From the IMG/VR virus record IMGVR_UViG_2690315815_000002: a stretch of 23,513 bases of DNA; one strand, given 5' to 3'. Every line of letters starts with the position of its first letter. The first letter of the stretch is position 1. A program made the position numbers and the translations under genes. The notes under the pieces are model-generated. The model ran no database searches. It worked only from the letters and a program-made list of their open reading frames with translations, and was not told the origin of the DNA. Positions 1 to 22,110 of this stretch are shown piece after piece. This DNA is from a virus (lineage: Duplodnaviria > Heunggongvirae > Uroviricota > Caudoviricetes).

Positions 1-324
1 TCATCTGCCGGGGTGATAATCAGGCGCGTGGGTGTTGTAATTGGCACCAATCACATCAAGGTCATTACCGGCGGCACAGGCCAGCATCACCGCCCGTGCG
101 GCCTCATTCACACGCTGACGCCAGATAAGCTCACGATAAGCATTTTCCTCCAGCAGTTTGACGAGAGGCTCAGATTCCAGTGTCAGGGTACGGGCGACCG
201 CCTCCTGCTGGTCTTCCGGGTAAAGGGAAATCAGTGTCGCCTTGCGTTCGGCAAGAATGGTTTCAAAGTCCAGCTCCTCGACCACATCCGGTGCGGGTAG
301 CTGGTTCAGGTCGATAATCGGCAT
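1..324 (-). pseudogene. J: baseplate assembly protein J (gpJ), N-terminal part; frame broken near nt 30 so the ORF stops at 1-3 while another frame continues past the window edge
   Basis: ORF 1..324 begins MPIIDLNQLPAPDVVEELDFE, which I recognise as the P2 gpJ N-terminus; after GANYNT it hits a stop, whereas the adjacent frame reads on as TRLIITPADD without a stop. Confidence 0.8.
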
Positions 325-328
325 GGTT

Positions 329-675
329 TCAACTCACAGGGATGGTTAACGAAAGTGGCTGGCCGGTGTCGTTGTGCTGGCCGGTTAACGTGACCGTCAT
401 TCGCCCGTCAAAACTGCGCTCAGTGGTGACGGATGACAGGGTGACGCGGGGTTCCCATTTCAGCACCGCCATGTAACAGGCGACCTTAATCTGCAACTCA
501 AGCGCGGGGTCTGCGGCTGGTCAATCATTGACGCCAGCAACGAGCCGTAATCACGACGCATCACCCGTGAGCCGACCGGTGTGCGCAGGATATCGCCGAT
601 ACTCTGGCTGATATGCTCAAGGTCAGTGACAGTCAGGCCATCACTGCGATTCATTCCGAGATAACGCGCTGTCAT
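329..675 (-). pseudogene. W: baseplate assembly protein W (gpW), frameshifted near nt 505
   Basis: ORF 460..675 matches P2 gpW through ...MIDQPQTP then diverges (RLSCRLRS...*); the adjacent frame continues ALELQIKVACYMAVLKWEPRVTLS...LTIPVS to a stop at 329-331. Confidence 0.85.
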
Positions 676-1302
676 AAAGGACTCCCGGTTGTGCCGCCGC
701 TGTCGCCGGGGTGTTTATGGGTATGCAGTACCTTACCGTTTGATGAGAGTTCACCGCCGGTGTGTTCAATGTTGCCGCGCATCGTCCCGCCCTTCTGCAC
801 TTCCAGCGTGCCGGTGATCAGCTTGTTTGTGCAGACCACCTCCGGCGTGTCCAGAGTGATGCGGGTTGATGCTTTCACCATGACCACCGGCACCGTGGCA
901 GTAACAGAATCAGAAGCCGTCACGCTGGCCGTTTTAATTCCGCTTACCGTAAGCGCACTGGTTTCGGGTTCATACTCAATCACCGCCCCGTCAGGGAAAC
1001 GGATATGCAGGGCATCCGCCGACGCAGACGGCGCAGGGTTATCGCCGGAATAAATCCCCGGCAGAACGAACGCCGTGTCGAGTTCACCCCACGGCCAGAA
1101 TCAGCACCTGTTCCCCCACGGAAGGTGCCCACCATGTGCGCGAACCGGCGCGATGGGTCAGCCACTGAAGCCAGTCGGTGCACATGCCGCCGGTCTGCAC
1201 ACGGCAGCGACCGGCGTTAAGGTCGGTTTCAACGATAATGCCGGTACGAATCATGTTGCGCAGTGCGCGCGCGAGTTCCTGAATATTTGCGAGAGTGTCC
1301 AT
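672..1302 (-). pseudogene. V: baseplate spike/puncturing protein V (gpV), frameshifted near nt 1086-1090
   Basis: N-terminal part (MDTLANIQELARAL...VLILAVG) is in ORF 1084..1362; C-terminal part (GELDTAFVLPGIY...VIEYEPETS...GSPL) is in the frame of ORF 672..983; the two frames meet at a C-run at 1087-1090. Confidence 0.85.
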
Positions 1303-1621
1303 GCATGTGAGATTGCACAATATATAAAAAGTTATGCTATCTGGATTCATTTGTAGAACCACCAGACAACATTCAAGGAGAGCGTAATGTCAGCTATAAT
1401 GTGACTAATGTGTGGGAAGCTAATCGTTTTGTATCTTTTGGTCTTTGCAGTATTAGCATTTTTTAGCTTTGGTAAAAGTAACCTTATGAGGGCTTATTGC
1501 ACATTATTTCAAATTTGGATATTCAGACAAAAAATTAAAAAGACTGGACCGCGAGTGGCGCGACATTCAACTATTTAAAATACTTAACGGAATCAATGTA
1601 TCAGGCATCGAAGATGTGAGA

Positions 1622-1942
1622 ATGATACAGCAGGGGCTGATTGATGGAAAACTAAAAACATCGGATTTTTTCCTTACTCGCTTCTGGGGAGACATAACAG
1701 AACCGCCATGCATCACAAAAACAATGAGTGCAGTCCTGGCCGGAATTCTTTATATTATCTTCGCATGTTGCATACACAACGAGCAATCTGCCATAGTAGA
1801 GGATGCCATAGCCATACCATATAAAAATATGATGTACCATGTTTATAATGACAAGGTTCTTTTGTTCTCCGACAATAAAACAGATAAGTTCTATAAGCTT
1901 TTAGCATTGCCGATTGCAAGAGACTGCAGAACACTTTTGTAA
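1622..1942 (+). CDS. hypothetical protein in the V-S insert; start and integrity uncertain
   Basis: ORF 1616..1942 (108 aa) in the track; no clear RBS; the same frame upstream is open and protein-like, suggesting a disrupted longer gene. Confidence 0.25.
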   Translation: MIQQGLIDGKLKTSDFFLTRFWGDITEPPCITKTMSAVLAGILYIIFACCIHNEQSAIVEDAIAIPYKNMMYHVYNDKVLLFSDNKTDKFYKLLALPIARDCRTLL

Positions 1943-2003
1943 CAGACACACTTCCTGCAATCGCCTGCAATAAGCTCTTACAGCTAAACGAGGAGGACTC
2001 CGA

Positions 2004-2172
2004 ATGGTTAAGTCAGGAGATTAAAGATAATAACAGCCACAGAAAAACATTATTAATAATATCCCTAATCTATTTCATTTCAGGTCTATTTATATTCCTG
2101 TCATACACAAAATTCCTTTACGCCAATAAGAAGGTTTTAGAATACAAAGCATCAAATAAAAACCACTCATAA
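2004..2172 (+). pseudogene. small single-TM membrane protein (about 56 aa if repaired), frameshifted after codon 6
   Basis: Strong SD AGGAGGA at 1991-1997, ATG at 2004, then stop after MVKSGD; the +1 frame continues IKDNNSHRKTLLIISLIYFISGLFIFLSYTKFLYANKKVLEYKASNKNHS to a stop at 2170-2172. Confidence 0.4.
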
Positions 2173-2241
2173 ACCTCTAAACATTGCGACCAGCACGGCC
2201 GCTCAATGTTTAATTGCGCATCAGCCTCTGCCTGGATAAAA

Positions 2242-2693
2242 CTAACGCTCAAGGTGAGCCAGGATAATCTCTTCAATCATCTGCACATCCTCACCGGTAA
2301 AGCCGAGCAGAGGACGCGCCGGATAATCAGTTTTCTTACCGTCTTTCCGGGTTTCTTCCGACAGACCGAACTGATGCACACTGGCAATTTCGGCGACTTC
2401 CCGCCGTAAAACTCCATTGATGCCTGTTCCGGGCTGGCGCGGATATGCAAAAAACGACTGGTGATAAGTTTCGCAAACATTTTTCGCTTAACACGACCGG
2501 TCTTTTTTCTGGCGCTCTGCTGCTGGCGTGGCACGTAGGGTGTGCCGTCCGGGGCTTTCTGTGCCATCACCCGACGCTGCTGACTCTGACGCAGACGTTT
2601 CGCCAGTTCGGCGCTCAGTCGCCGACGCCCTGACGGTGACAGCGATTCAGTCAGTCCGGTCAGCCGGTCTTCAAAACGCTTAAACTCATTCAT
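2242..2693 (-). pseudogene. S: tail completion protein S (gpS), frameshifted near nt 2388-2390
   Basis: ORF 2277..2693 matches P2 gpS through ...MEFYGGKSPK then diverges; the adjacent frame reads IASVHQFGLSEETRKDGKKTDYPARPLLGFTGEDVQMIEEIILAHLER to a stop at 2242-2244; the frames meet at a TTT run. Confidence 0.85.
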
Positions 2694-3153
2694 CCCACTT
2701 GCTCACCAGTTCGCCATTGATATACAGCTCCATCGGGCGGGTAACCGGCTCCGGCGGCGGAGGTTCCGGGATATTCTTCACATGTAGCGCGCCTTCCACC
2801 TCACTGACCAGCGTGCGCTCGGTCAGCATCAGGCTGATGCTGATATCAAAGCTGCTGTCATTGTTGATGTCTGCATAAAACGTGAAGCCCTTTTTCTGGC
2901 CTTCGTCGGTGGTCATGATGTCTGGCTGATTTTCCCGCAGCCACGCCAGCACCGGCACAATGAGCAGGTCAAAATCACCGGTAAAGTCGGTCACAATCAC
3001 ATTGAGCGTGTAACGCTTTTCGAATGACATAGACGTCGCCAGTGTGGAGGCAATACTCCCGTTATCCACGAATATCCGCAGCATCTCGGGACTGGTTTTC
3101 AGCACCGTGACGGCGTCAGTCAGCGCCCTGCGCAGGCTGTCGGGTTTGAGCAT
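2686..3153 (-). CDS. R: tail completion protein R (gpR)
   Basis: 155-aa ORF recognisable as P2 gpR; start overlaps the S start region as in P2. Confidence 0.9.
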   Translation of the reverse strand: MLKPDSLRRALTDAVTVLKTSPEMLRIFVDNGSIASTLATSMSFEKRYTLNVIVTDFTGDFDLLIVPVLAWLRENQPDIMTTDEGQKKGFTFYADINNDSSFDISISLMLTERTLVSEVEGALHVKNIPEPPPPEPVTRPMELYINGELVSKWDE

Positions 3154-7586: not shown

Positions 7587-8441
7587 TCAGCAGTTCGTCA
7601 TCAGGCCGTCACCGCCACCACCGGTGGCCTTGCTGCGGCGCTGCTGGGTCAGACTTTCGGTGTGGTCGAGACTGTTTTTCAGGCGGGTGAATGCCTGGCT
7701 GGTTTCATCCGCCCTGTCAGTCACCGCCTGCTTAAGTGCGGAAAAGGCGGTTTCCATCTCAGCGAGGCGCTGCTCAGTGGCGCTCAGTTTTTCCTGCACA
7801 TGTTCAGCAACAGCGGTCACCGCTTCATGCACGTCATTCAGACGGGCGTCATCGCTGGCCTGTTTGCGGCCAAAAATGGATTTCACCTTTTCGGTCAGGG
7901 CGGTGAACACGGTTTCAGGCAGGTCTTCAAATTCCAGCTCAACGGGCGTTGCCACTGAAATCAGGTTTTCAGGGCTTAATTTGAAGCGGTTCAGAGGGTT
8001 GTGTTTTGCCGTGCGGCAGAATTCCAGGTATTCCGTGCCGAGGCTTGCCGGGTCATCGGTGACGGCCAGCCCCACCAGATAACATTTGCCGGTGTTGGCA
8101 AAGTTCGGCTGAATTTCCATTGAGGTGTAGACCTTCTGCGCGGCCTTGTTCATCGCGATAAGGTCATCGGTCGGGGTGATTTTCGCAAACAGCGCCCATT
8201 TGCCTTTCAGCGCCGAATCATCGTCAATCTTTTCGGCCTTCAGTTCGACCACATCGCCATAACGCTTAAAAATACCGTCAGGCAGGATGCCGCGCAGATG
8301 TTCCAGGTTAATGCGGCAACCATAGACTCGCGGGTCAAAGGTTTCGGCCATTTCCTGAATATCCTGCGCACTGATGACACGCCCGTCACAGGTGTCACCC
8401 TCAACGCCGATACGAAAGAATTTTGAGACTTTTTTTGCCAT
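7587..8441 (-). CDS. O: capsid scaffolding protein O (gpO); native upstream region replaced by an IS end
   Basis: Start at MAKKVSKFFRIGVEGDT within ORF 7587..8468 gives 284 aa, the P2 gpO length; start codon lies inside the IS target duplication. Confidence 0.88.
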   Translation of the reverse strand: MAKKVSKFFRIGVEGDTCDGRVISAQDIQEMAETFDPRVYGCRINLEHLRGILPDGIFKRYGDVVELKAEKIDDDSALKGKWALFAKITPTDDLIAMNKAAQKVYTSMEIQPNFANTGKCYLVGLAVTDDPASLGTEYLEFCRTAKHNPLNRFKLSPENLISVATPVELEFEDLPETVFTALTEKVKSIFGRKQASDDARLNDVHEAVTAVAEHVQEKLSATEQRLAEMETAFSALKQAVTDRADETSQAFTRLKNSLDHTESLTQQRRSKATGGGGDGLMTNC

Positions 8442-8442
8442 T
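8438..8442. repeat. target site duplication CCATT (left copy)
   Basis: CCATT immediately outside the left IS terminus; identical copy at 11024-11028. Confidence 0.75.
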
Positions 8443-8635
8443 TGCGTATTTTCATGAAAGGAGATCACTCAATAACTTCCATCGAGATCGGGTAATAACA
8501 TTTGAACAGATCGCTGAATAACATCGATGGAGATCACTTTTGACTCATTTTGTTATTCAGTGATCTCCATCAATGTTATTGGAACTTCACAGGTGTGTTG
8601 ATCTGTATCTTTTGCCATTCCGGTAAAGGATACCT

Positions 8636-10177
8636 ATGCCAACAGTTCCAATTTCTATGAGAAAACTTAAAGAAATTCTTAGGCTTAAATACGGTGTTGG
8701 ACTCAGCCATCGACAAATTGGTCGTAGTCTTGCAATCTCCCCTTCCGTTGTATCCAGATATGCTAATCGGGCGGCTCAACTTGGCATAAAGCAGTGGCCC
8801 TTACCTACAGGATGGGATGATACAAAACTAAAACATGCGTTCCTTCAGACCCAGGTTAAGATGAAGAAGCACTCTCTGCCTGACTGGGCTACAGTACACC
8901 GGGAACTGCGTAATAAATGCGTGACGCTGCAGCTACTCTGGGAAGAATACTGTGAGCGTAATCCAGGCGGTTTTTACAGCTATAACCATTACTGCCGGAT
9001 GTACCGTGAATGGCTCAAAACCACTTCACCATCAATGCGTCAGGTACATAAAGCTGGCGAAAAACTTTTCGTTGATTACTGTGGACCTACCGTTGGCGTT
9101 ACCGACCCTGAGACCGGAGAAATAAGAACTGCTCAGGTCATCGTAGCTGTTCTCGGGGCATCAAGTTACACATGGGCAGAGGCCACCTGGTCTCAGCAGC
9201 TTGAAGACTGGGTGATGAGTCATGTTCGCTGCTTCCAGTGGTTGGGTGGCGTTCCTGAACTTGTTGTTCCGGACAATCTGAAAAGCGCCACATCCAGGGC
9301 ATGTAAGTATGATCCTGACGTTAACCCTACCTACCAGCAGATGCTTGAGCATTATAATGTCGCAGTTTTGCCTGCGCGGCCACGTAAACCGAAAGATAAA
9401 GCCAAAGCTGAAGTTGGCGTTCAGGTTGTTGAACGCTGGATCATGGCCCGAATCAGGCATGAGATCTTCTACAGCCTTGCATCGCTTAATCAGCGCATTC
9501 GGGAGTTGCTGGAAAGACTGAATAACAAAATAATGCAGAAGTTGGGTTATTCACGTGCAGAACTCTTCATCCAGCTTGATAAACCCGCACTGAAGCCTCT
9601 TCCTGAAGCCAGTTACAGTTACACCCTGGTGAAGAAAGTCAGAGTTCATGCCGATTACCACGTGGAAATCGACAAACATTACTACTCGGTTCCATGTTCG
9701 CTGTTAGGCCAGCAACTGGAAGCATGGATCTCCGGAGAACTGGTAAGACTCTTCAATCAGGGGCAGGAGGTTGCTGTGCACCCGCGCAAGCGTACTTATG
9801 GCTACAGTACCCGCAACGAGCACATGCCTGAAGCTCATCGACAGCATGCCACCTGGACGCCAGAGCGTCTTCTGGAATGGGCGGGGCACATAGGCAGTGA
9901 AACTCATAGTTATGTGCTTCATATACTGAACTCTCGTCCACATCCGGAACAAAGCTATCGCTTCTGCCTTGGACTCCTGAACCTTCATAAAAAATACAGT
10001 AAAGCCAGACTTAATGCAGCATGTGCAAGAGCTCTGAAAACAAAGGTATGGCGTCTGTCAGGTATTAAATCGATCCTGGAAAAAGGTCTGGATAAACAAC
10101 CTGTTCAGGATCCAAAACCAGATCTGTTATCCACGATGGAACACGAAAACGTACGCGGCAGTGAGTATTACCACTGA
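8636..10177 (+). CDS. istA: IS21-family transposase IstA
   Basis: 513-aa ORF with the appearance of an IS21-family IstA (N-terminal HTH-like region then catalytic core); paired with an IstB-type ATPase. Confidence 0.85.
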   Translation: MPTVPISMRKLKEILRLKYGVGLSHRQIGRSLAISPSVVSRYANRAAQLGIKQWPLPTGWDDTKLKHAFLQTQVKMKKHSLPDWATVHRELRNKCVTLQLLWEEYCERNPGGFYSYNHYCRMYREWLKTTSPSMRQVHKAGEKLFVDYCGPTVGVTDPETGEIRTAQVIVAVLGASSYTWAEATWSQQLEDWVMSHVRCFQWLGGVPELVVPDNLKSATSRACKYDPDVNPTYQQMLEHYNVAVLPARPRKPKDKAKAEVGVQVVERWIMARIRHEIFYSLASLNQRIRELLERLNNKIMQKLGYSRAELFIQLDKPALKPLPEASYSYTLVKKVRVHADYHVEIDKHYYSVPCSLLGQQLEAWISGELVRLFNQGQEVAVHPRKRTYGYSTRNEHMPEAHRQHATWTPERLLEWAGHIGSETHSYVLHILNSRPHPEQSYRFCLGLLNLHKKYSKARLNAACARALKTKVWRLSGIKSILEKGLDKQPVQDPKPDLLSTMEHENVRGSEYYH

Positions 10178-10188
10178 TACGGGATCCA

Positions 10189-10938
10189 ATGATGAATCAT
10201 CTTTACGAACAACTGACCGCACTTAAACTCACCGGCTTCCGTGATGCGCTTAAAAAGCAACTTGCTCAACCGGGCACATACCAGGAGCTGGGCTTCGAAG
10301 AACGCCTGTCATTACTGACAGCAGAAGAACTAACCTGCCGTGAAAACAGGAAGGCAGAGCGTCTGATCAAACATGCACGGTTCAGACTTAATGCTGAGTT
10401 ATCAAAGCTGGATTATCGTAACAATAGAGGGCTGGACAGGGCCCTCATCCGTTCACTCAGTCAGGGAAACTGGTTAACCCTGAAACAAAATATTTTACTG
10501 ACCGGGGCCACCGGCAGCGGTAAAACGTTCCTGGCATGTGCACTTGGTCATAATGCCTGCCGACAGGGATACAAGGTCTACTATTATCGCCTTAAAGCGC
10601 TGATGGAACAGTGCTATCAGGGGCATGCTGATGGAAGATACAGCAAACTTTTGACCAGGCTGAATAATAGCGATCTGCTGCTTCTGGATGACTGGGGGCT
10701 GGAACCTCTCTCATCAGAACAGCGTAGCGACCTGCTGGAAATAGTGGATCTGATGTACCAACGAGGCTCAATCATCGTAGTGAGCCAGTTGCCGGTGGAA
10801 AACTGGTACAAAATGATCGGAGACTCCACACATGCGGATGCCATCCTAGATCGACTGGTTCATGGCAGTATCAAGATCGAACTTAAAGGAGAATCAATGC
10901 GGAAAATACAATCTCCGTTGACCGAAGGAGATCAGTGA
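10189..10938 (+). CDS. istB: IS21-family ATP-binding helper protein IstB
   Basis: 249-aa ORF with Walker A (GATGSGKT) and Walker B (LLLLDDWG) motifs, as in IstB/DnaC-like AAA+ proteins. Confidence 0.88.
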   Translation: MMNHLYEQLTALKLTGFRDALKKQLAQPGTYQELGFEERLSLLTAEELTCRENRKAERLIKHARFRLNAELSKLDYRNNRGLDRALIRSLSQGNWLTLKQNILLTGATGSGKTFLACALGHNACRQGYKVYYYRLKALMEQCYQGHADGRYSKLLTRLNNSDLLLLDDWGLEPLSSEQRSDLLEIVDLMYQRGSIIVVSQLPVENWYKMIGDSTHADAILDRLVHGSIKIELKGESMRKIQSPLTEGDQ

Positions 10939-11023
10939 AGGTAATTTAAAAACGGTTCTGTGAAAGTGACACGAACCGATCTCCATCGATGTTACTCACC
11001 GATCTCCTTCACGGTAATACGCA

Positions 11024-11028
11024 CCATT
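11024..11028. repeat. target site duplication CCATT (right copy)
   Basis: CCATT immediately outside the right IS terminus. Confidence 0.75.
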
Positions 11029-11200
11029 GTCAGGAGTCCTGAATAGTGATTAGAGGAGTCACATGTCGGCATCAGTTTCCCGACGATGCGCATCCTCCGC
11101 CATCAGTCCCGGATGGCTTATCACTGACACAACAGCACCTTAGCGAATCGCGGGGCGCGACTCAGTAGCCTTGCCGTGTATTCATCACGGCGAGGTATTC

Positions 11201-12973
11201 ATGACCATCACCACAGACACCACTCTTTTACACGACCCGCGTCGTCAGGCGGCGCTGCTGTACTGGCAGGGGTTTTCCGTGCCGCAGATTGCCGCCATGT
11301 TGCAGATGAAACGCCCGACGGTGCAGAGCTGGAAACAGCGCGACGGCTGGGACAGCGTTGCCCCCATCAGCCGTGTCGAAATGAGTCTGGAAGCGCGGCT
11401 GACCCAGCTCATTATCAAACCGCAGAAAACCGGCGGTGACTTCAAGGAAATTGACCTGCTCGGACGCCAGATTGAACGACTGGCACGGGTAAACCGCTAC
11501 AGCCAGACCGGCAACGAGGCAGACCTTAATCCGAACGTCGCTAACCGCAACAAAGGCGGGCGGCGCAAACCGAAAAAGAATTTTTTCAGTGACGAGGCTA
11601 TCGAAAAGCTGGAGCAGATTTTCTTTGAGCAGTCTTTCGACTATCAGTTGCACTGGTATCGCGCCGGGCTTGAGCACCGCATCCGCGATATCCTGAAATC
11701 CCGCCAGATTGGCGCGACATTTTATTTTTCCCGCGAGGCGCTGCTGCGCGCCCTGAAAACCGGTCATAACCAGATTTTTCTGTCGGCCAGTAAAACGCAG
11801 GCGTATGTGTTCCGTGAATACATCATCGCCTTTGCCCGTCTGGTTGACGTTGACCTGACCGGTGACCCGATTGTCCTGGGCAATAACGGCGCAAAACTGA
11901 TTTTTCTCGGCACCAACTCCAACACCGCACAGAGCCATAACGGTGACCTGTACGTCGACGAGATTTTCTGGATCCCAAATTTTCAGGTTCTGCGTAAGGT
12001 GGCATCAGGTATGGCCTCACAGAGTCACCTGCGCTCGACCTATTTCTCCACCCCGTCCACACTGGCGCACGACGCCTACCCGTTCTGGTCGGGTGAACTG
12101 TTCAACCGGGGACGCGCCAGCGCCGCCGAACGTGTGGAAATCGACGTCAGTCATAACGCCCTTGCCGGTGGGCTTCTCTGTGCGGACGGCCAGTGGCGGC
12201 AGATTGTCACCATTGAGGACGCCCTGAAAGGTGGCTGCACACTGTTCGACATTGAGCAGCTCAAACGCGAAAACAGCGCCGACGATTTTAAAAACCTGTT
12301 CATGTGTGAATTTGTTGACGACAAGGCATCGGTGTTCCCGTTCGAGGAGCTGCAACGCTGCATGGTCGACACGCTGGAAGAATGGGAAGACTATGCACCG
12401 TTTGCCGCCAATCCGTTCGGCTCCCGCCCGGTATGGATTGGTTACGACCCGTCACACCGTGGCGACAGCGCCGGATGCGTGGTGCTGGCACCGCCGGTGG
12501 TGGCCGGTGGCAAATTCAGGATACTTGAGCGTCACCAGTGGAAAGGCATGGACTTTGCCACCCAGGCTGAATCCATCCGCAAACTCACCGAAAAATATAA
12601 CGTCGAATACATCGGTATTGATGCCACCGGCCTCGGTGTCGGCGTGTTCCAGCTCGTGCGCTCGTTCTATCCCGCCGCGCGCGATATCCGCTACACACCG
12701 GAAATGAAAACCGCAATGGTGCTCAAGGCAAAAGACGTTATCCGCCGTGGCTGTCTGGAATATGACGTCAGCGCCACCGACATCACCAGCTCGTTTATGG
12801 CTATCCGCAAGACCATGACCAGCAGCGGACGCAGCGCCACCTATGAGGCCAGTCGCAGCGAGGAAGCCAGCCACGCCGACCTCGCCTGGGCGACCATGCA
12901 CGCCCTGTTAAATGAGCCACTCACCGCCGGTATCAGCACCCCGCTGACATCCACCATTCTGGAGTTTTACTGA
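11201..12973 (+). CDS. P: terminase ATPase (large) subunit P (gpP)
   Basis: Start at MTITTDTTLLHDPRRQAALLYWQGF within ORF 11171..12973; 590 aa, recognisable as P2 gpP. Confidence 0.92.
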   Translation: MTITTDTTLLHDPRRQAALLYWQGFSVPQIAAMLQMKRPTVQSWKQRDGWDSVAPISRVEMSLEARLTQLIIKPQKTGGDFKEIDLLGRQIERLARVNRYSQTGNEADLNPNVANRNKGGRRKPKKNFFSDEAIEKLEQIFFEQSFDYQLHWYRAGLEHRIRDILKSRQIGATFYFSREALLRALKTGHNQIFLSASKTQAYVFREYIIAFARLVDVDLTGDPIVLGNNGAKLIFLGTNSNTAQSHNGDLYVDEIFWIPNFQVLRKVASGMASQSHLRSTYFSTPSTLAHDAYPFWSGELFNRGRASAAERVEIDVSHNALAGGLLCADGQWRQIVTIEDALKGGCTLFDIEQLKRENSADDFKNLFMCEFVDDKASVFPFEELQRCMVDTLEEWEDYAPFAANPFGSRPVWIGYDPSHRGDSAGCVVLAPPVVAGGKFRILERHQWKGMDFATQAESIRKLTEKYNVEYIGIDATGLGVGVFQLVRSFYPAARDIRYTPEMKTAMVLKAKDVIRRGCLEYDVSATDITSSFMAIRKTMTSSGRSATYEASRSEEASHADLAWATMHALLNEPLTAGISTPLTSTILEFY

Positions 12974-14007
12974 TGAGCAAGAAAAAAGGGAAAACACCGC
13001 AACCTGCGGTGAAAACAATGACCGCCAGCGCCCCGAAAATGGAGGCATTCACCTTTGGTGAGCCGGTGCCGGTACTCGACCGCCGTGACATTCTGGATTA
13101 CGTCGAGTGCATCAGTAACGGCAGATGGTATGAGCCACCGGTCAGCTTTACCGGTCTGGCAAAAAGCCTGCGTGCTGCCGTACATCACAGCTCACCGATT
13201 TACGTCAAACGTAATATTCTGGCTTCAACGTTTATTCCGCACCCGTGGCTTTCCCAGCAGGATTTCAGCCGCTTTGTGCTGGATTTTCTGGTGTTCGGTA
13301 ATGCGTTTCTGGAAAAGCGTTACAGCACCACCGGTAAGGTTATCAGGCTGGAAACCTCACCGGCAAAATATACCCGCCGTGGCGTGGAGGAGGATGTTTA
13401 CTGGTGGGTGCCGTCCTTCAACGAGCCGACAGCCTTCGCGTCCGGCTCCGTGTTTCACCTGCTGGAGCCGGATATTAATCAGGAGCTGTACGGCCTGCCG
13501 GAATATCTCAGCGCCCTTAACTCTGCCTGGCTGAATGAGTCGGCCACGCTGTTCCGCCGCAAGTATTACGAAAATGGCGCACATGCTGGATACATCATGT
13601 ACGTCACCGATGCCGTGCAGGATCGCAACGATATCGAAATGCTTCGCGAAAACATGGTGAAGTCGAAAGGCCGCAATAACTTTAAAAATCTGTTTCTCTA
13701 TGCCCCACAGGGGAAAGCCGACGGCATTAAAATTATCCCCCTCAGTGAAGTGGCGACGAAGGACGATTTTTTTAATATCAAAAAAGCCAGCGCCGCTGAC
13801 CTGCTGGACGCGCACCGCATCCCCTTTCAGTTGATGGGTGGCAAGCCGGAGAACGTCGGGTCGCTGGGTGATATTGAGAAAGTGGCAAAGGTCTTTGTCC
13901 GCAATGAGCTTATCCCGTTACAGGACAGGATCCGCGAGATAAACGACTGGCTCGGTCAGGAGGTCATCCGCTTTAAAAACTACTCACTTGACACTGACAA
14001 CGGCTGA
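12973..14007 (+). CDS. Q: portal protein Q (gpQ)
   Basis: 344-aa ORF recognisable as P2 gpQ; ATG overlaps the P stop (TGATG). Confidence 0.92.
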   Translation: MSKKKGKTPQPAVKTMTASAPKMEAFTFGEPVPVLDRRDILDYVECISNGRWYEPPVSFTGLAKSLRAAVHHSSPIYVKRNILASTFIPHPWLSQQDFSRFVLDFLVFGNAFLEKRYSTTGKVIRLETSPAKYTRRGVEEDVYWWVPSFNEPTAFASGSVFHLLEPDINQELYGLPEYLSALNSAWLNESATLFRRKYYENGAHAGYIMYVTDAVQDRNDIEMLRENMVKSKGRNNFKNLFLYAPQGKADGIKIIPLSEVATKDDFFNIKKASAADLLDAHRIPFQLMGGKPENVGSLGDIEKVAKVFVRNELIPLQDRIREINDWLGQEVIRFKNYSLDTDNG

Positions 14008-14034: not shown

Positions 14035-14168
14035 ACATCCCGTCATCACGCCCTCACCACCGCACAAAACACCCCGCAGACACACCAACGCCCCAGCAGG
14101 CCGACTAAATGCCATCACGACGCGCTGAGACGCTGAAAAAATAAAATCAGCACCACCGCCAGCGCGCA

Positions 14169-14187
14169 GTGCTTTCCCCGCCTCGCC
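14169..14187 (-). other. cos site (19-nt cohesive end) of the P2-like phage
   Basis: GTGCTTTCCCCGCCTCGCC is the exact reverse complement of the P2 cohesive end GGCGAGGCGGGGAAAGCAC as I recall it; correct position just beyond Q. Confidence 0.8.
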
Positions 14188-14379
14188 CGCCCGCTTCATG
14201 GGGCGGTTTTAATGCAGTTGCATAGATACTATGGATCCGCACCAGTCCTGACCGCACGCAGCCTGAACGGACATCCCCGACGCATGCAAAAACATTCACT
14301 TGTTGCATGCAACGGCTTATTTAATGACAAATCAACTTAAATTTACAAAATCCACAGGTATGGATACTTTGCGAACATG

Positions 14380-14411
14380 ATAGGCTTACGAGAATTATCG
14401 AGCCTATTTTT
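14380..14411 (+). terminator. hairpin plus T-run immediately upstream of the RBS of the 313-aa gene
   Basis: ATAGGCT (14380-14386) pairs with AGCCTAT (14401-14407), 14-nt loop, then TTTTT; GGAG RBS at 14415-14418. Confidence 0.3.
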
Positions 14412-14425
14412 GACCGGAGCAATGT

Positions 14426-15367
14426 ATGCAAGGTAAAGTTGACGAACAGCAATCCAATGATATTGAAGCTGAGTTTGGATACTATCCAGTAGAAGTTAAC
14501 GTTGAAACTGATGATTTTTCTTTACTTACTTTACCCGGTCTAGCGGAAAAAACAAATCTTATAAACAATCACAGAAATGTTATTAACGGTTGGATATACC
14601 CAGGAAACCAAGAAGTATATAACCTCAATGGAGGCATATCCACAATGCCTTTTAGCCAACGAGTATTTGGCTTACCCAAAACACACTCACTAAAATTAAA
14701 AAATACATCTTCACTAGAAACTCTCAATTTTGCTGTGTGGTGTCTGTCTTTTTTCAAAGGGATAAGATTAACAACTACTGATGCCGGTTTTTTAGACGCA
14801 ACCCCAATAAAACCCAGCAAATTAACTGACTTTATTCTGGTCAAGTGCTCTGAAAAAGAGGTTATAGAATTAGCACTCAAATACATGTCTAGCGAGACAA
14901 AAACCAAACACGCACCAATAAATATAGCAGCAATAGTGCATGCACTATTTTTATCCCAAAACCCACAATACCTTAGCTTCGAAAAATTCCAGTATCTTTA
15001 TATGGCACTGGATAGTTGCTTTGCTTTAACATGGGCAGAAAAGAACAAGTGTACAGAAAAGACTCTAAATCACTCCAGGCGCTTGAAGTGGATCTGCAAA
15101 ACTTATGGAATACCACGACCATCATGGGTTACAGGCAAAAAAAACATTACAAACATCCGCAATGAAAACTTTCATGAAGCTATGTTTCATGGTCAACCAC
15201 TTGGCTTTACCACTATTAACAATTATCAATATGGAGATGACATATTACAACAAATGCAGGCTTTAATTTGCCGATTACTCGTTGCGATTCTTGGTGTTAA
15301 CGCCCCCGATTACATCACATCGAACGTGAACTCTCGTGAATATCATTCACTAACATTAAAAATATAA
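14426..15367 (+). CDS. hypothetical protein, 313 aa, AT-rich, with C-terminal R-x4-H motif (possible HEPN-like nuclease)
   Basis: Complete ORF with GGAG RBS 7 nt upstream; motif R245-NENF-H250 (IRNENFHEAMFHG) at nt 15158-15175; no resemblance to P2 core genes. Confidence 0.6.
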   Translation: MQGKVDEQQSNDIEAEFGYYPVEVNVETDDFSLLTLPGLAEKTNLINNHRNVINGWIYPGNQEVYNLNGGISTMPFSQRVFGLPKTHSLKLKNTSSLETLNFAVWCLSFFKGIRLTTTDAGFLDATPIKPSKLTDFILVKCSEKEVIELALKYMSSETKTKHAPINIAAIVHALFLSQNPQYLSFEKFQYLYMALDSCFALTWAEKNKCTEKTLNHSRRLKWICKTYGIPRPSWVTGKKNITNIRNENFHEAMFHGQPLGFTTINNYQYGDDILQQMQALICRLLVAILGVNAPDYITSNVNSREYHSLTLKI

Positions 15368-15382
15368 AACGACTAAAAATAC

Positions 15383-15408
15383 TCTCCAGTAACAATAAGT
15401 ACTGGAGA
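15383..15408. terminator. hairpin between the convergent 313-aa gene and the membrane-protein gene
   Basis: TCTCCAGTA / TACTGGAGA 9-bp stem with 8-nt loop; T-run follows on the minus strand. Confidence 0.4.
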
Positions 15409-15449
15409 TGTATTATCACTAAAACCAATAAAAAATCACAACTAATGCT

Positions 15450-16049
15450 TTACTTAGATAGTTTGTCTTTAATTATATTCAGAACACCAATTATTAATTC
15501 ACTGATTGGCGTGGCCAACTCAATAGTATTAGATGTCGACTTTGTTCTAAAGTCTTTATCTGTCGGGTGTTGAAATGCTGATTTAAGAAGAGTCAAAAGC
15601 AAAGTTAAACCCACACCAAGGATGAATGCAACAATAGCTATTAGAGAACTGGCCGATAACCAATCGGTGGATAAACCAGAAATAGATTTTCTAACTTTAT
15701 TAGTGTCTGAAGATGGTGTTATCCTCTCATCAGCCATCTTCGGATCCGAAGATAAAGCAGAACATTTTTCTGCTGAAACACAAGTTTGTGTATCTACTTT
15801 TTGTGTTATCGCTGCGGCAATACTGCTTTTCGCTTCCAGCAAGCCATTTCCAACAGCCAAAGCAAAGTTAAGCCCCTGCCATAGAAATGTACAAGCAAAA
15901 CAAAGCACAACGGCAGAGAGCACTAATCGCATACTTCTACGCTCTATACCATCCCGTCTATCTCGCCTTATAAGGATATCAGGATCTGAATCGCCCTTAG
16001 GAGTGGTTCCTTGCTCTGGGGACTGTCCAGATAAATCAATATCAGCCAT
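15450..16049 (-). CDS. hypothetical 2-TM membrane protein (199 aa from the first ATG; 160 aa if the internal ATG at 15932 is used)
   Basis: Two hydrophobic helices (LVLSAVVLCFACTFLWQGLNFALAV and LIAIVAFILGVGLTLLLTLL) separated by a Ser/Ala-rich linker; co-directional with and downstream of the peptidase gene. Confidence 0.5.
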   Translation of the reverse strand: MADIDLSGQSPEQGTTPKGDSDPDILIRRDRRDGIERRSMRLVLSAVVLCFACTFLWQGLNFALAVGNGLLEAKSSIAAAITQKVDTQTCVSAEKCSALSSDPKMADERITPSSDTNKVRKSISGLSTDWLSASSLIAIVAFILGVGLTLLLTLLKSAFQHPTDKDFRTKSTSNTIELATPISELIIGVLNIIKDKLSK

Positions 16050-16090
16050 AAAAAAATCACCCTTACATGTACAAACGTAAAGGTGATTTT
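16050..16090 (-). terminator. intrinsic terminator between peptidase and membrane-protein genes, directly abutting the downstream ATG
   Basis: On the minus strand: UCACCUUUAC / GUAAGGGUGA 10-bp stem (one G-U pair), 10-nt loop, then seven U, followed immediately by the ATG at 16049; the 3' arm contains the only SD-like sequence (AAGGGUG). Confidence 0.6.
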
Positions 16091-16115
16091 AAACAGGTTA
16101 AAAGTTAAAGGCTAA

Positions 16116-16601
16116 TTAATAAGCCATTCCTAAGCTCTTTAAGCGCCAATGCATAGCGGCTTCTGATACATTAAAGATGCTTGCTAATCTCAAAGTGCTA
16201 TCAATACCTTCTCTGGATACCAATTGACGTATAGCAGACTCAGGCATTAACAACTCAGCAGCAAACTTGTTTGCTTCAACCTCACGGTAATCACGAGCAC
16301 CTGTTGAATAATTCCCGACATTATCCCGATGGTACTCTCCGTCCTGGGTATGCCCCAGCACATGATGACCTAACTCGTGTGCAACAGTAAAACGTTGACG
16401 ATTAGAATGTTCACTAGAATCAAAATAAATCCTATGGACACCCTTTTTGATGACAGCCAGACCGCTTAACCCATCGTTGTTATAAGCCGATTCCTCAAGT
16501 GCTTCAACACGAGCACCCCACGCTTTAGCAAGCTTAAACGGATCGACAGGTAGTCGGCGATCCCAATAGCGGTCAAGCAGTTTTTTAGCTGCATAGCTCA
16601 T
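16116..16601 (-). CDS. ImmA/IrrE-family (M78) zinc metallopeptidase, 161 aa, with no adjacent HTH partner
   Basis: HEXXH motif HELGHHVLGH and the downstream EANKFAAELLMP signature typical of ImmA/IrrE peptidases; strong SD AGGAGG 5 nt upstream of the ATG. Confidence 0.8.
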   Translation of the reverse strand: MSYAAKKLLDRYWDRRLPVDPFKLAKAWGARVEALEESAYNNDGLSGLAVIKKGVHRIYFDSSEHSNRQRFTVAHELGHHVLGHTQDGEYHRDNVGNYSTGARDYREVEANKFAAELLMPESAIRQLVSREGIDSTLRLASIFNVSEAAMHWRLKSLGMAY

Positions 16602-16637
16602 GGTTGCCTCCTACGTTAAAAAAGTTAAGTATGCACA

Positions 16638-16666
16638 GCCATATCACAGTTGTTATTTTATGTCAA
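16638..16666 (-). promoter_or_regulatory. putative sigma70 promoter for the peptidase gene
   Basis: On the minus strand: perfect -35 TTGACA (16661-16666), 17-nt spacer, weak -10 TATGGC (16638-16643), about 35 nt upstream of the ATG. Confidence 0.35.
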
Positions 16667-17322
16667 GGCTGTTTTTCAGCCATTACTATAACACTAATCC
16701 ACGTTTTCCCATAACATTTTCGACATCATATATGCATTCCGTTCTGCATATAGAGCTTATCTTTGCTGATAACACGAGATGAATACGCGCAACCAGTCCA
16801 CGATTTATAAAAAACCTTATAAATCAGAATATTGAGTTAAAAAAACACTAACTACTTGCGCAGCGCGTTGTTAAACCTCAGCGACACTAAAAGAAAATTT
16901 CAGAGTCACCGAAGTTTCCACAGAAAACGCAACTTAATGATTTTATTGGAATTTATGTCGCTATTTTTAATTACTTGTTTAAATCCGCCATATTGAAACT
17001 GTGCATTTCTAGCCACTCACAACTTTAAAAAATTTACATTGCTTTCAAGACCTTATCATCCGTAGTCTCTGCTTTTTACTTTGAGCTATATCAAAAAAAG
17101 CTCAAACATCCTTGATGCAAAACCAGTATTACACAACATAAAATGCAACCAGAAACAACGACATACTATATGTTGTGTTGTTCAGGTCCTCTGTTCGGTG
17201 ATATGCCAGATCACTTTGCGTTTAAACAGAGCATTATTTCAGGGCAAGACTTCGCTCAATAGTCACTCCGCCTTAGAAGCGCATATATCGGCGGAAATTG
17301 CCCTCTGCTTACAGGAGGCGAT

Positions 17323-17436
17323 ATGAAGAAGTGCTATTACTGCATTCTCGTTCTGGCCCTCTTTGGCTATCCATATGGTAGTCCGAGTGGTTTGTCAGTA
17401 AACGTCAGTAATATCCATGTAAGTATTTTTCTTTAG
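17323..17436 (+). CDS. small hydrophobic peptide, 37 aa (MKKCYYCILVLALFGYPYGSPSGLSVNVSNIHVSIFL)
   Basis: SD AGGAGG at 17313-17318, ATG at 17323, stop at 17434-17436, terminator 12 nt downstream. Confidence 0.4.
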   Translation: MKKCYYCILVLALFGYPYGSPSGLSVNVSNIHVSIFL

Positions 17437-17448
17437 TATGCTTCAAAC

Positions 17449-17478
17449 AAAAAAACCACCTGCCAGGGTGGTTTTTTT
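17449..17478. terminator. bidirectional rho-independent terminator
   Basis: A-run (17449-17455), CCACC-TGCCAG-GGTGG hairpin, T-run (17472-17478). Confidence 0.65.
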
Positions 17479-17738
17479 GCGCCCGTCATCAATCCGATGA
17501 AAGACTAGCAAGACTTCGCTCGAGATGAATTATGCTTCGACATAAAGTCACTCGCAATGGTTTTATTAACCGAAATAGATGCTCTTTTATGACTCGAATC
17601 AAATAGCTGCCTTCAATTACATGCTAACGATTCAATACAATTTAGCCTTCTGATTCAACACGCTATTGCTCCTCATCTACCTTAGAGGTGCTTCGCATAA
17701 TCCATTCAAAGACATATAAAATCACGCTGTATTTTTAC

Positions 17739-20015
17739 TCAAATGGGTAACAAAAATCCCGGCCAATCATCAGCGACCTGATAAGTGAAAGGTTTCCCGT
17801 CATAATTTACGGTCGCGCCACGCGCCAGCGCCTCAAGCTCCCATCGTTGCGGCCTGATACCGTTCTGAGCGAGATCAACGCGGATACGGGTAATTTGCAA
17901 TCGTTCCGACCGGGTCAGTCTGGCCGATGGTGCAATTTCATGCGGTTTTAACGGGCTTCCGTTTCTTTGCTGACGGTTTGGCGTTCTCCGGTCGTGTTTT
18001 AATGCGCCCCTGAGCGCCCTCACGACCTCCGGGTCATTCCATTCGATAACATCGTCATCAACCAGATTAAGCACTGCTGCGGCGTGCTCAGAAGGTGTGG
18101 GAGCCGGTAACGAAGTATCACCACCGGTGAGCTTTCCACAGTTATTGACAGGACTCCGAGGCGCGGCGATGCCGCTTTTTAAAGTCAAAGGCTCAACGAC
18201 CGGAACTTTCGGCACAATGCGCCAGTCCGTCGTTCTGGTGATATGAATATGACGCGCGCCGAGATGCGGCGCGTAAATGCCGACCACCCTCTCGACCTCT
18301 TCCTCGTACTCGTTAACGTCATCCGACGGGCTACGGGCGACCCTGACAGTCTGACAATCGCGCGGGACATTTGCCCCACCCTGCGCGCTGATATACAACG
18401 CAAAATCACCACTGTCTGCGGCGGCGCGTGCAGCCTCGACGCGCTCGTCAAACTCATCAGCAATGCTGACGCCGCGCGGCAATTTGCGTAGTTCACGGTA
18501 AGCCCCCATTGTCGGCAGACCAACCGTTTTAAATTGCGGGATGCGCCACGTTGACGCCCATGCGGTAACAGCCGCAGCAGTGTCTTTCAGCGGCCTGCCG
18601 GTATCGTTATCGAGCTGACCATCCAGTGCATAGCCGTCGATGTTTTTTGAGATGTATTTCGCGATATACCCCGCAGCACCGCCCCGGTTAAGGTGTTTTG
18701 CCTGAAAACGGTTTCGCGCGGCTCCTCTTTCGTCGCCATCCTCTTTGAGCGCATAGCGACGCATGATTTCGATAATCTGGTTACGCTGGCGCGGATTACA
18801 AAAAAGCATCATATGCCAGTGCGGCGTTCCGTCGTGGTGTGGCTCGACGACACGCAAACCGTAGACCTGTAAATCATTATCCTTGAATGCCGTGCGCATC
18901 AGGCTCCAGATACGGCAGAGATAACGCTGCGCATCCTTTGGATTAAATGCCTCATCGTTCCAGCCGTGATTTAGCTGGACGGTTTTACTTTCGCCTTTTC
19001 TGACCTGACGTGTCGGGTGATACTTTGACGGCGCGGTCAGCGTGATAAACATCCCCACATCACCCTCTGCTGCGGCGTAACGCTCAATACCGGCAATGGT
19101 GTTCATCAGCTCCATCCGGCGAATTTCAGGATTAGAAATACTGCCCATCACCTTACTGATAAGGTCGATGCGCTCGCCGGTTTCCCTGTTTTCGAGATCA
19201 CACGATTTAAGAAATTCCAGATTTGCCTGGCGGCGTGCACGCACATCACGAATGGCATGTTTACTGGCATAAGGAGAACGGTCTTTATTGACCTCCCCGA
19301 CAGCAATCAGTAACGCCTCATGCCAGCGCATACGCTGGCCTTTAAGCTGATGGGTCCACCACTCATCGTTAAACAGACGGGCAATGGCAGAATATGCCTG
19401 CCTCGTGGTCATCTGCCCTTTACGGTATTTTTTCCAGTAGAGAGGGGAAATATTGAAAGCACGTGCAGCACCAGCAACATGACCATAGAGGTGAGCCTGC
19501 GCCTCATCCGTAAACAGCGATTCTTTTTCGCCATGCGCATCCACCCAGGCATCGCAGAGTTCCTCATACATCATGAAAAGCTGCGATGAGATACGGGCGG
19601 CAAACTTTTTCAGCTCCTTGTCATTCATCCCCGGCAGACGCGCATAATGGCCACGCTCTGCCAGAAACAGCAACGACGCGTCGGTGTTCATTTCATGGCG
19701 CTGATTCACACGCTCAATGCGCGGCCATAAACGACGCTGAAAAGTGGATGTGAGAAAATAAAACCCGTGCACCGGGCTTTTATTGCGCCGGATGTAGTCA
19801 TAGCGTGAAGTAAACAGCGAGCGCAAAAAGTAAGGCAGGCGGTTAATCGTGGATAAAACCCCTTGCACCTGACGCATCTCGTCACGTGTAAGGGGTCTTT
19901 CGCGCCCGACAGCCTCGCGTGGCGCGTTCCATGCATAAGCACCGGTAAACGCCTTACCGGTGCCTGCGGCAAATGCTGACGGAGGGACAAAACGCCCGGA
20001 GGCTTTAACGGCCAT
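17739..20015 (-). CDS. A: replication initiation protein A (gpA, rolling-circle nickase)
   Basis: ORF 17739..20057 recognisable as P2 gpA; ATG start chosen at MAVKASGRFVPPSAF (the longer track ORF begins at a TTG). Confidence 0.9.
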   Translation of the reverse strand: MAVKASGRFVPPSAFAAGTGKAFTGAYAWNAPREAVGRERPLTRDEMRQVQGVLSTINRLPYFLRSLFTSRYDYIRRNKSPVHGFYFLTSTFQRRLWPRIERVNQRHEMNTDASLLFLAERGHYARLPGMNDKELKKFAARISSQLFMMYEELCDAWVDAHGEKESLFTDEAQAHLYGHVAGAARAFNISPLYWKKYRKGQMTTRQAYSAIARLFNDEWWTHQLKGQRMRWHEALLIAVGEVNKDRSPYASKHAIRDVRARRQANLEFLKSCDLENRETGERIDLISKVMGSISNPEIRRMELMNTIAGIERYAAAEGDVGMFITLTAPSKYHPTRQVRKGESKTVQLNHGWNDEAFNPKDAQRYLCRIWSLMRTAFKDNDLQVYGLRVVEPHHDGTPHWHMMLFCNPRQRNQIIEIMRRYALKEDGDERGAARNRFQAKHLNRGGAAGYIAKYISKNIDGYALDGQLDNDTGRPLKDTAAAVTAWASTWRIPQFKTVGLPTMGAYRELRKLPRGVSIADEFDERVEAARAAADSGDFALYISAQGGANVPRDCQTVRVARSPSDDVNEYEEEVERVVGIYAPHLGARHIHITRTTDWRIVPKVPVVEPLTLKSGIAAPRSPVNNCGKLTGGDTSLPAPTPSEHAAAVLNLVDDDVIEWNDPEVVRALRGALKHDRRTPNRQQRNGSPLKPHEIAPSARLTRSERLQITRIRVDLAQNGIRPQRWELEALARGATVNYDGKPFTYQVADDWPGFLLPI

Positions 20016-20280
20016 ATGAGCCAAAAGCCTCTGAACAACGCTTGCTGAGTTGCTCAACCTGCACGTTTAAATCAGCAAAAGACTTTGCGCTTCCGGTCAG
20101 AATATCGTGATGCATCAGGCCGGAAACGAGCTGGCTTAATTTCGGGTAATAACCAACCACCGACAGCCATTCCTGACCGGCGTTTTTACCGCTTTCCGCT
20201 CTCTTTTTCTCGTGGAGAATAAACTGAAAGCTGTCACTGGTAACGACATAACGTTCGCCAATTTCAATACGAATACTCAT
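20005..20280 (-). CDS. hypothetical early protein (P2 orf83 position)
   Basis: 91-aa ORF in the small-ORF block between B and A; stop overlaps the A start region. Confidence 0.7.
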   Translation of the reverse strand: MSIRIEIGERYVVTSDSFQFILHEKKRAESGKNAGQEWLSVVGYYPKLSQLVSGLMHHDILTGSAKSFADLNVQVEQLSKRCSEAFGSYGR

Positions 20281-20501: not shown

Positions 20502-20503
20502 TA

Positions 20504-21027: not shown

Positions 21028-21090
21028 GACTTTCTCCAGGCAAAAAGAAGCCCCGCACGATTAAGTGCGTTAAAAACTCTGGTTAATTAT

Positions 21091-22033: not shown

Positions 22034-22110
22034 ATATGGTACCCTCATAGGATCCAGCCCTTTCTAAACCACTCAAAACCGTTTAGACGCTGGTTTATTC
22101 TCAAATCAAT

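Follow-up and report, generated by a model that had tools for sequence, protein, structure and literature searches.

An ISEc12 copy at the start codon of scaffold gene O in a P2-like Escherichia coli prophage, likely blocking expression of the O operon

Organization of the locus

The window, i.e., the whole stretch of 23,513 nucleotides analyzed here (IMG/VR record IMGVR_UViG_2690315815_000002), has the layout of a P2-like (Peduovirus) phage, with the Q-P and O-N-M-L late operons diverging from a stretch between P and O that holds their common activator site. P, Q and the genes from N to R are intact, and the window ends inside J. Gene O encodes the capsid scaffold/protease of 284 aa and occupies 7587-8441 on the minus strand (Pfam Phage_GPO, E=1.9e-109). 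Gene P, for the large terminase, lies on the plus strand at 11201-12973 and is also intact (Pfam Terminase_6N, 6C and 5; start mapped from P2). The space between the two genes is taken up by a complete insertion sequence (8443-11023, plus strand) and by the P-O intergenic control region (11029-11200), which is intact and was delimited from the annotation of phage P2 (AF063097) through an alignment of 100% identity.

The same annotation places the pO start at 11067 on the minus strand, the pP start at 11178 on the plus strand, and the shared activator site at 11107-11137. The first-pass annotation had assigned the late promoters of P and O to this intergenic region, and the P2 record puts both of them there together with the activator site. 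No exact TGT-N12-ACA motif occurs in the P-O intergenic region. With one mismatch, the motif is found at 11114-11131, within the P2-annotated activator site, and its centre is 55.5 bp from both transcription starts. On this map, the place of the insertion sequence corresponds to +40 to +44 of the late transcript from pO. The element leaves pP, P and Q untouched, and its own genes, istA and istB, point in the same direction as P.

Private frameshifting indels are present in J, W, V and S. These may be sequence errors; should they be genuine, the prophage is defective with or without the insertion sequence. Positions 1-2400 of the window also show an indel-only anomaly, with 11 indels and zero substitutions. 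We rejected prophage decay as the leading reading of these indels, since the same stretch is free of substitutions.

The inserted element is ISEc12

The element of 2581 bp is identical over its full length to copies annotated as ISEc12 on E. coli chromosomes and plasmids. The name was assigned by proxy, through copies with 100% identity over 2581 bp whose RefSeq genes are called 'IS21-like element ISEc12 family' (WP_001298859.1 and WP_001016257.1). Of 5426 complete E. coli genomes, 1909 carry ISEc12. A full ISEc12 also occurs in four unrelated phages of 52-54 kb (the PhiR12 series), where it adjoins tail-fibre genes.

Two genes are carried by the element. istA (8636-10177, plus strand) encodes a DDE transposase of 513 aa with the Pfam domains rve and Mu-transpos_C_2, and scores 310.5 bits on the NCBIfam model NF033546 (IS21 family transposase) against a cut-off of 160. 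istB follows directly 3' of it, with a start at 10189 after the istA stop at 10177, and runs to 10938; it encodes the AAA+ helper ATPase of 249 aa (Pfam IstB_IS21, PF01695, E=2.2e-67) and reaches 270 bits with NF038214 (cut-off, 200). Both reading frames are intact and the same as in the widespread copies, which is no more than suggestive of competence for transposition.

The termini, TGCGTATT and AATACGCA, form a perfect inverted repeat of 8 bp with the TG...CA ends of the IS21 family; in imperfect form, it can be followed to 16 nt at 81% and to about 53 nt at 72%. At the left end (8443-8580), the repeat search found the terminal repeat (TGCGTATT...) together with subterminal repeats containing GGAGATCAC, two of them direct (8453-8469 and 8522-8538) and one inverted (8559-8580). 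The right end (10957-11023) has the terminal repeat (...AATACGCA) and repeats at 10978-10994 and 11001-11017. The repeats of both ends have the form of putative transposase-binding motifs of the L1/L2 and R1/R2 type.

The ends also contain promoter-like elements. There is a candidate -10 box, TATTTT, at 8447-8452 (IS positions 5-10), and a candidate outward -35 box, TTCACG, at 11008-11013, which ends 10 nt from the right terminus. Read by eye and by analogy with IS21 (PMC10122671), the two boxes would be 16-18 nt apart across a tandem or circular junction of 2-4 bp, and could form a candidate junction promoter. In the window, the left box is also part of a hybrid promoter-like site on the plus strand, TTGAGA-18-TATTTT (8423-8452), which is directed into istA; gene O supplies its -35 and the IS end its -10. 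This site is a consensus match only, at 9 of 12 positions, and promoter-like sites are not in excess in the region overall.

By its DNA identity, therefore, the element is the known ISEc12 and no new member of the IS21 family. The first-pass annotation had described an IS21-family element of 2581 bp with perfect 8-bp terminal inverted repeats; the size and the termini hold for 8443-11023, the family is supported by both NCBIfam models above their cut-offs, and the name can now be sharpened to ISEc12.

Target site and the start of gene O

The pentamer CCATT is found on both sides of the element, at 8438-8442 and 11024-11028. When the window is compared by blastn with the prophage of JJ2434, two HSPs are obtained that overlap in the reference by exactly 5 bp (13096-13100), i.e., the target-site duplication. 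The chance of a 5-bp flanking match alone is 1 in 1024. Positions 11024-11215 are 100% identical to P2, where the sequence is uninterrupted (...TTTTTTTGCCATTGTCAGGAG...). We reconstructed the empty site as the two flanks with a single CCATT (1200 bp). This query gives a one-piece match at 100% in at least 21 complete E. coli genomes, and a one-piece match covering at least 80% of the query in 1544 E. coli records. Among phages, 116 records match it in one piece, e.g., fiAA91-ss and L-413C at 99.2-99.3%. Because of these empty-site matches, the uninterrupted P2 sequence and the 5-bp HSP overlap, 8443-11023 represents an insertion, not ancestral phage DNA.

The CAT within each CCATT is the O start codon. 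The left copy holds the ATG that gene O has kept (8441 to 8439, minus strand), and another ATG, also on the minus strand, lies in the right copy (11027 to 11025). Thus, the coding sequence of O is whole, and the left end of the IS now stands upstream in place of its own leader and ribosome-binding site. The original ribosome-binding site, AGGA, is at 11037-11040 on the minus strand, 9 nt upstream of the restored ATG. It is now used by an ORF of 11 codons, MVRITVKEIGE* (10992-11027, minus strand), which stops within the right IS end. The predicted anti-Shine-Dalgarno pairing in the 25 nt upstream of O was -4.0 kcal/mol originally and is +0.4 kcal/mol in the new context. The duplication on both sides, the start codon within it, the AGGA and the short ORF running into the IS had been read in the first-pass annotation and were recovered here, and the alignment of the flanks with an uninterrupted P-O region is likewise contiguous.

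Likely effect on the O operon

Since pO, pP and the activator site map to the P side of the element, O is cut off from its own promoter, leader and ribosome-binding site. We read the events as follows. Staggered cuts 5 bp apart duplicated AATGG (coding strand), i.e., the last base of the leader, the O ATG and the base that opens codon 2. The pO promoter with its Ogr-type activator site remains on the P side, as do the leader of 40 nt and the ribosome-binding site, and the 11-codon ORF is all that they now serve. The O ATG is kept, but 2.58 kb further downstream, behind IS sequence that offers no ribosome-binding site. Late transcripts from pO would then have to cross about 2.5 kb of the IS in antisense.

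Long untranslated IS RNA favours Rho termination. The antisense strand of the element has only a few short ORFs, of 54-99 aa, with no evidence of translation; over about 2.5 kb, transcription from pO would therefore probably end early, in the manner of classical IS polarity. According to the P2 record, the pO operon comprises O, N, M, L, X, Y, K, lysA, lysB, R and S, so that, besides the head genes, those for lysis and for tail completion (R and S) would be affected. Expression of O and of the genes downstream (N, M, L, X, holin, endolysin, lysA/B, R and S) would be largely lost, and the prophage could then neither assemble heads nor lyse the cell. From the sequence, the whole O operon, with its head, lysis and R/S tail genes, is likely blocked by polarity.

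The alternative that survives best accepts the insertion and denies its effect: read-through from pO or a weak promoter in the left end would still supply O, translated from its ATG or from another start, and the prophage would be at least partly productive. We consider this improbable. The ATG and coding sequence of O are intact, as are the downstream genes N to R, and N, M, L and the later genes have their own start sites. There is also an in-frame GTG at 8468 on the minus strand, upstream of O, preceded at a spacing of 9 nt by a weak GGA motif (-3.4 kcal/mol); initiation there could give O an N-terminal extension of 9 residues. Against this, the O ATG has lost its ribosome-binding site, with the change in predicted pairing given above. 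As for a promoter, the scan at its default threshold found none facing O, and a relaxed scan of the minus strand yielded only two weak matches at 8 of 12 positions; the weak promoter-like site TCAACA-17-TAACAT at 8601-8573, on that strand, speaks for the alternative. An outward promoter supplied by the IS was thus rejected as positive evidence.

Six weak terminator-like sites lie on the antisense strand, where 2.7 +/- 1.8 are expected from shuffles; we find these unconvincing and rejected them as evidence for intrinsic terminators. Candidate Rho-loading windows, C-rich and G-poor, are modest (C 0.31-0.35, G 0.18-0.19). As no strong intrinsic terminator was found and such windows are modest, some read-through could reach N, M, L and the later genes. 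Read-through from pO across the IS would be a second escape route besides the outward promoter that the first-pass annotation had allowed for, and the abolition of head-gene expression it proposed is something that we infer. Still, some 2.5 kb of scarcely coding antisense RNA ahead of O favours Rho termination. Scaffold protein is required in large amounts for capsid assembly, and a strong drop in it should already be disabling. P2-type prophages are not known to be SOS-inducible, so the mitomycin C test suggested in the first-pass annotation would be uninformative here.

We therefore hold with considerable confidence that an ISEc12 copy transposed into an E. coli P2-like (Peduovirus) prophage at the start of O and likely blocks expression of the O operon.

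Age and authenticity of the insertion

None of 5426 complete E. coli genomes contains the left junction, and neither do IMG/VR, the GTDB species representatives or the JGI metagenome collection. Given a junction absent from these collections, an ISEc12 identical to other copies and a perfect target duplication, sequence comparison dates the insertion as recent and makes it private to one genome.

That the junction was not found in other collections would also suit an assembly artefact, in which a repeat-resolved IS copy was put at the wrong locus, and the indel-only error profile of the left 2.4 kb points to imperfect sequence quality somewhere in the record. However, both junctions consist of exact IS termini and a perfect 5-bp duplication of what is single-copy in the uninterrupted site. 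A misassembly would not yield the duplication length typical for ISEc12 (PMC10711316), and the 600 bp on either side of the IS, like the IS itself, match references at 100%. An artefact is thus very improbable. The weakest reading, that the 2.6-kb segment is an ancestral moron of the phage lineage and no secondary insertion, we count as already refuted, since the segment is absent from this site in all 116 phage records and 1544 E. coli records with the region in one piece and P2 itself is uninterrupted there.

ISEc12 insertions inside gene O elsewhere

Four independent ISEc12 insertions were found about 115-123 bp into gene O, in E. coli NMBU-W13E19, Ec-U18 and GIMC1409 (L001-L003) and in an IMG/VR contig (L043). 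They involve the same IS, the same gene and the same phage type as the window; the insertions in the three E. coli genomes also share its orientation, and their ISEc12 copies have 0 mismatches to ours. The difference is that these four insertions split the O coding sequence, whereas the window copy spares it and severs the expression signals. The duplications at the gene-O-internal sites are 8, 7 and 5 bp, compared with 5 bp in the window, and across other ISEc12 copies they are 5, 6, 7 or 8 bp. A comparison of 17 distinct ISEc12 sites revealed no clear target consensus, and the likeness of CCATT-G and CCATA-G at two O sites may be chance.

At least five independent insertions thus fall in a stretch of 125 bp, including four in a stretch of 9 bp, and ISEc12 occurs there in either orientation. 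We tentatively raise the idea, which we think doubtful, that the promoter-proximal 5' part of gene O is a structural hot spot for ISEc12, where target choice through kinking by IstB repeatedly disarms the head-and-lysis operon. If true, prophages of E. coli would have a recurrent path to domestication, one that is biased by mechanism.

The insertion in the window is in itself an ordinary event, with an element and a process that are already known, and it probably cripples the P2-like prophage. For annotation, the prophage is best entered as disrupted by an IS and probably defective, and the element as ISEc12. Beyond annotation the case matters little, and its wider interest is in the clustered ISEc12 insertions at the 5' end of gene O, a possible natural test case for structure-based site selection by IstB.

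Comparison with known systems

In gal or lac, an IS1 or IS2 copy between the promoter and the first gene blocks the operon through termination in the untranslated IS. We liken the ISEc12 of the window to these leader insertions, and polarity in the orientation of ISEc12 would be expected by that likeness.

Like IS21 and IS5376, ISEc12 has an istA-istB operon, TG...CA termini, multiple subterminal repeats and 5-bp duplications (PMC10122671, PMC11208146). IS21-family insertions produce 5-bp duplications and are free of strong sequence specificity (PMC10122671), and the target choice of IS21 and IS5376 follows DNA deformability, not sequence (PMC10122671, PMC11208146), a trait that ISEc12 would share. 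For the -10 of the left end and the -35 of the right end of IS21, equivalent places can be read in the ends of ISEc12, from which we infer a putative junction promoter. ISEc12 differs from IS21 and IS5376 in its longer IstA (513 aa versus about 390-400 aa), in its size (2.58 kb versus about 2.0-2.1 kb) and in its duplications, which range from 5 to 8 bp among its copies and are 5 bp in the other two.

The closest precedent is in E. coli ST131 clade C/H30, where ISEc12 with a 5-bp duplication inactivates tssM (PMC10711316). Both cases have the same 2581-bp element with istA and istB, a 5-bp duplication and, by simple insertion, inactivation of the locus, which for the window is the likely outcome. 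The tssM copy is fixed in its clade, whereas the window copy is private and stands at the boundary between the leader and the start codon of gene O in a P2-like prophage.

Results

Identity of the element and evidence for its insertion

The 2581-bp element starts at 8443 with the terminus TGCGTATT, ends at 11023 with AATACGCA, and is directly flanked on both sides by the target duplication CCATT (8438-8442 and 11024-11028). The sequence confirms the length, termini and duplication that the first-pass annotation had described. Further inward, the inverted repeat extends imperfectly (81% over 16 nt, 72% over about 53 nt). On the plus strand, istA (8636-10177) encodes 513 aa with Pfam domains rve and Mu-transpos_C_2 and scores 310 bits against NCBIfam NF033546 (IstA; cut-off 160 bits), and istB (10189-10938) encodes 249 aa matching Pfam IstB_IS21 (E=2.2e-67), with 270 bits against NF038214 (IstB; cut-off 200 bits). 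The assignment to the IS21 family is thus upheld by two proteins above their cut-offs. The name ISEc12 comes from 100% DNA identity over all 2581 bp to RefSeq copies labelled "IS21-like element ISEc12 family". Several copies of a GGAGATC-containing motif lie in each end, in agreement with the L1/L2 and R1/R2 repeats of the IS21 family (PMC10122671). Judged by its sequence, the element is ISEc12 and no new member of the family. ISEc12 is carried by 1909 of 5426 complete E. coli genomes, at a median of 3 places per genome, and is also present in 978 plasmids of Escherichia, Shigella and Klebsiella.

The empty site was searched with a 1200-bp query in which the window flanks are joined with a single CCATT. 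It is found in one piece at 100% in at least 21 complete E. coli genomes and is unbroken (one piece, at least 80% query coverage) in 1544 records; interruption is rare: of 1561 records with a match, no more than 17 fail to reach that coverage in one piece. One-piece matches also occur in 116 phage records, with fiAA91-ss, L-413C and others at 99.2-99.3%. Aligned to the JJ2434 prophage, the window splits into two pieces whose overlap is exactly the 5-bp CCATT, and its stretch starting with CCATT and reaching gene P is 100% identical to phage P2. In both JJ2434 and P2 the P-O region is contiguous, with a single CCATT. We looked for related intact phages with the segment at the same position and found none, so the earlier claim of an insertion stands. 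The left junction is absent from complete E. coli genomes, IMG/VR, a one-genome-per-species GTDB set and the JGI metagenome collection. Since the duplication is perfect and the IS does not differ from other copies (0 mismatches to three fetched copies), the insertion looks recent.

Position in the P-O control region

The P2 record (AF063097) annotates the start of pP, the late promoter of the P operon, at 3016, an activator-binding site common to pO and pP at 3057-3087, the pO start at 3127 and the O start codon at 3167 (P2 coordinates). Its O operon comprises O, N, M, L, X, Y, K, lysA, lysB, R and S. Transferred through the 100%-identical alignment, these features place the pO start at 11067 (minus strand), the activator site at 11107-11137, the pP start at 11178 (plus strand) and the P start codon at 11201, in line with the proposal that the late promoters of P and O lie in this intergenic region. 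The two transcription starts each lie 55.5 bp from the centre of a TGT-N12-ACA element with one mismatch (11114-11131).

From this mapping, the IS enters the pO transcript at positions +40 to +44. The duplication, AATGG when read on the coding strand, covers the final leader base, the ATG and the initial base of codon 2. Promoter pO and its activator site stay on the P side, together with the leader of 40 nt and its ribosome-binding site AGGA (11037-11040), which lies 9 nt upstream of the ATG. The leader and its ribosome-binding site now serve an 11-codon ORF (MVRITVKEIGE) with its stop in the right IS end; both the AGGA spacing and this ORF had been reported before and are seen in the sequence. 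The coding sequence of O (7587-8441; Phage_GPO, E=1.9e-109) keeps its ATG, now preceded by ...CTCCTTTCATGAAAATACGCAA. Promoter pP and genes P and Q, in the same orientation as istAB, are unaffected.

Predicted effect on the O operon

We suggest that the late O transcript would start at pO and then cross about 2.5 kb of the IS in antisense. IS insertions in operon leaders classically cause polarity, so Rho-dependent polarity should follow here. The whole operon would be hit, including the holin, endolysin, lysA/B and R/S genes in addition to the head genes named in the first-pass annotation. The antisense strand of the IS holds only a few short ORFs (54-99 aa, translation not evidenced). Its terminator-like sites are weak and, at 6 against 2.7 +/- 1.8 in shuffled sequence, show no significant enrichment, and its C-rich, G-poor windows are modest. 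No promoter-like site facing O appears at the default scan threshold; a relaxed scan gives two 8-of-12 matches.

Leaky expression, in which read-through is combined with initiation at the retained O ATG or from the in-frame GTG at 8468, seems improbable. The GTG has a weak GGA motif (-3.4 kcal/mol). Predicted anti-Shine-Dalgarno pairing upstream of O is +0.4 kcal/mol now versus -4.0 originally. We favor polarity over the O operon.

The IS ends also carry promoter-like motifs. In IS21, the tandem junction alone brings a left-end -10 and a right-end -35 together as a strong promoter (PMC10122671). By analogy, TATTTT at left-end positions 5-10 of ISEc12 and TTCACG, which ends 10 nt from the right terminus, would be 16-18 nt apart in a junction of 2-4 bp and would make a candidate junction promoter. 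At the present left junction, a hybrid promoter-like site (TTGAGA-18-TATTTT, 8423-8452, plus strand, 9-of-12) reads into istA, with its -35 from gene O and its -10 from the left IS end. Matching the consensus only, it might raise istAB expression.

Target choice

The exact start-codon position is probably not meaningful in itself. The 5' neighbourhood of gene O, in turn, is favoured by ISEc12. In three complete E. coli genomes the IS lies about 115-123 nt inside O, oriented as in the window: NMBU-W13E19 (L001, 4077-4084, 8-bp duplication ACCATAGA), Ec-U18 (L002, 4079-4085, 7-bp CATAGAC) and GIMC1409 (L003, 4078-4082, 5-bp CCGTA). At this same spot, an IMG/VR contig (L043, about 10815) carries an oppositely oriented ISEc12. 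These four independent insertions fall within 9 bp (window-equivalent 8319-8327), 115 bp from the window insertion, and look like a local hot spot. Other P2-like prophages carry ISEc12 in Q, near the Q end and in gene A (L012, L022, L026, L040).

Among 17 distinct ISEc12 target sites, taken from L001-L003 and IMG/VR loci L004-L044, there is no clear consensus. Duplications measure 5 bp (9 sites), 6 (1), 7 (6) or 8 (1), and the IS is 100% identical. Copies without a duplication (L007, L029, L040) suggest recombination between copies. IS21-family insertions in vitro have no strong sequence specificity, some of them clustering near promoters (PMC10122671), and IstB picks kink-prone DNA by deforming it (PMC11208146); the ISEc12 pattern fits this targeting. 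That ISEc12 has a structural hot spot in the 5' end of O, and through it disarms P2-like prophages repeatedly, is a tentative idea, rather doubtful at present.

Sequence quality and the rest of the prophage

Compared with JJ2434, the closest prophage, window positions 1-2400 have 11 indel events (30, 504, 1087, 1143, 1326, 1388, 1417, 1490, 1894, 2185, 2387) and no substitutions. They recur against a second reference prophage, S14, where it aligns, and are common to no complete E. coli genome (best match 99.4%). They frameshift J, W, V and S (baseplate and tail) and a hypothetical gene. A profile of indels alone suggests sequence error near the window's left end; natural decay is disfavoured by the lack of substitutions there. 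If the indels were real, the prophage would be defective regardless of the IS. Because the IS, both junctions and 600 bp on each side are 100% identical to references, the insertion finding is independent of the quality of this region.

At 14052 there is an 8-bp deletion relative to S14, in a non-coding stretch past Q. Otherwise 14130-23513 is identical to S14 and the left part is nearest JJ2434, which makes the prophage a mosaic of known variants. Between Q and replication gene A, 14426-17700 holds cargo encoding a 313-aa hypothetical protein, a 199-aa ORF and a 161-aa protein, the last an ImmA/IrrE metallopeptidase according to the matching S14 record. This cargo fills the variable slot in which P2 carries old and tin.

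Discussion

IS-disrupted prophages are commonplace, and the sole new fact here is one further ISEc12 insertion site. Full, 100% identical ISEc12 copies adjoin tail-fibre-assembly genes in Escherichia phages PhiR12_1, _2, _2_star and _4 (PV340549-PV340553; four genomes of 52-54 kb, deposited hosts E. coli K-12 MG1655 or E. coli C). Since complete copies sit in these phages, ISEc12 can travel within phage genomes. An ISEc12 insertion in tssM, flanked by the 5-bp duplication ACTGC, is a marker of ST131 clade C/H30 (PMC10711316). The element is catalogued and active in E. coli, and the window case lies within this known kind and is no departure from it.
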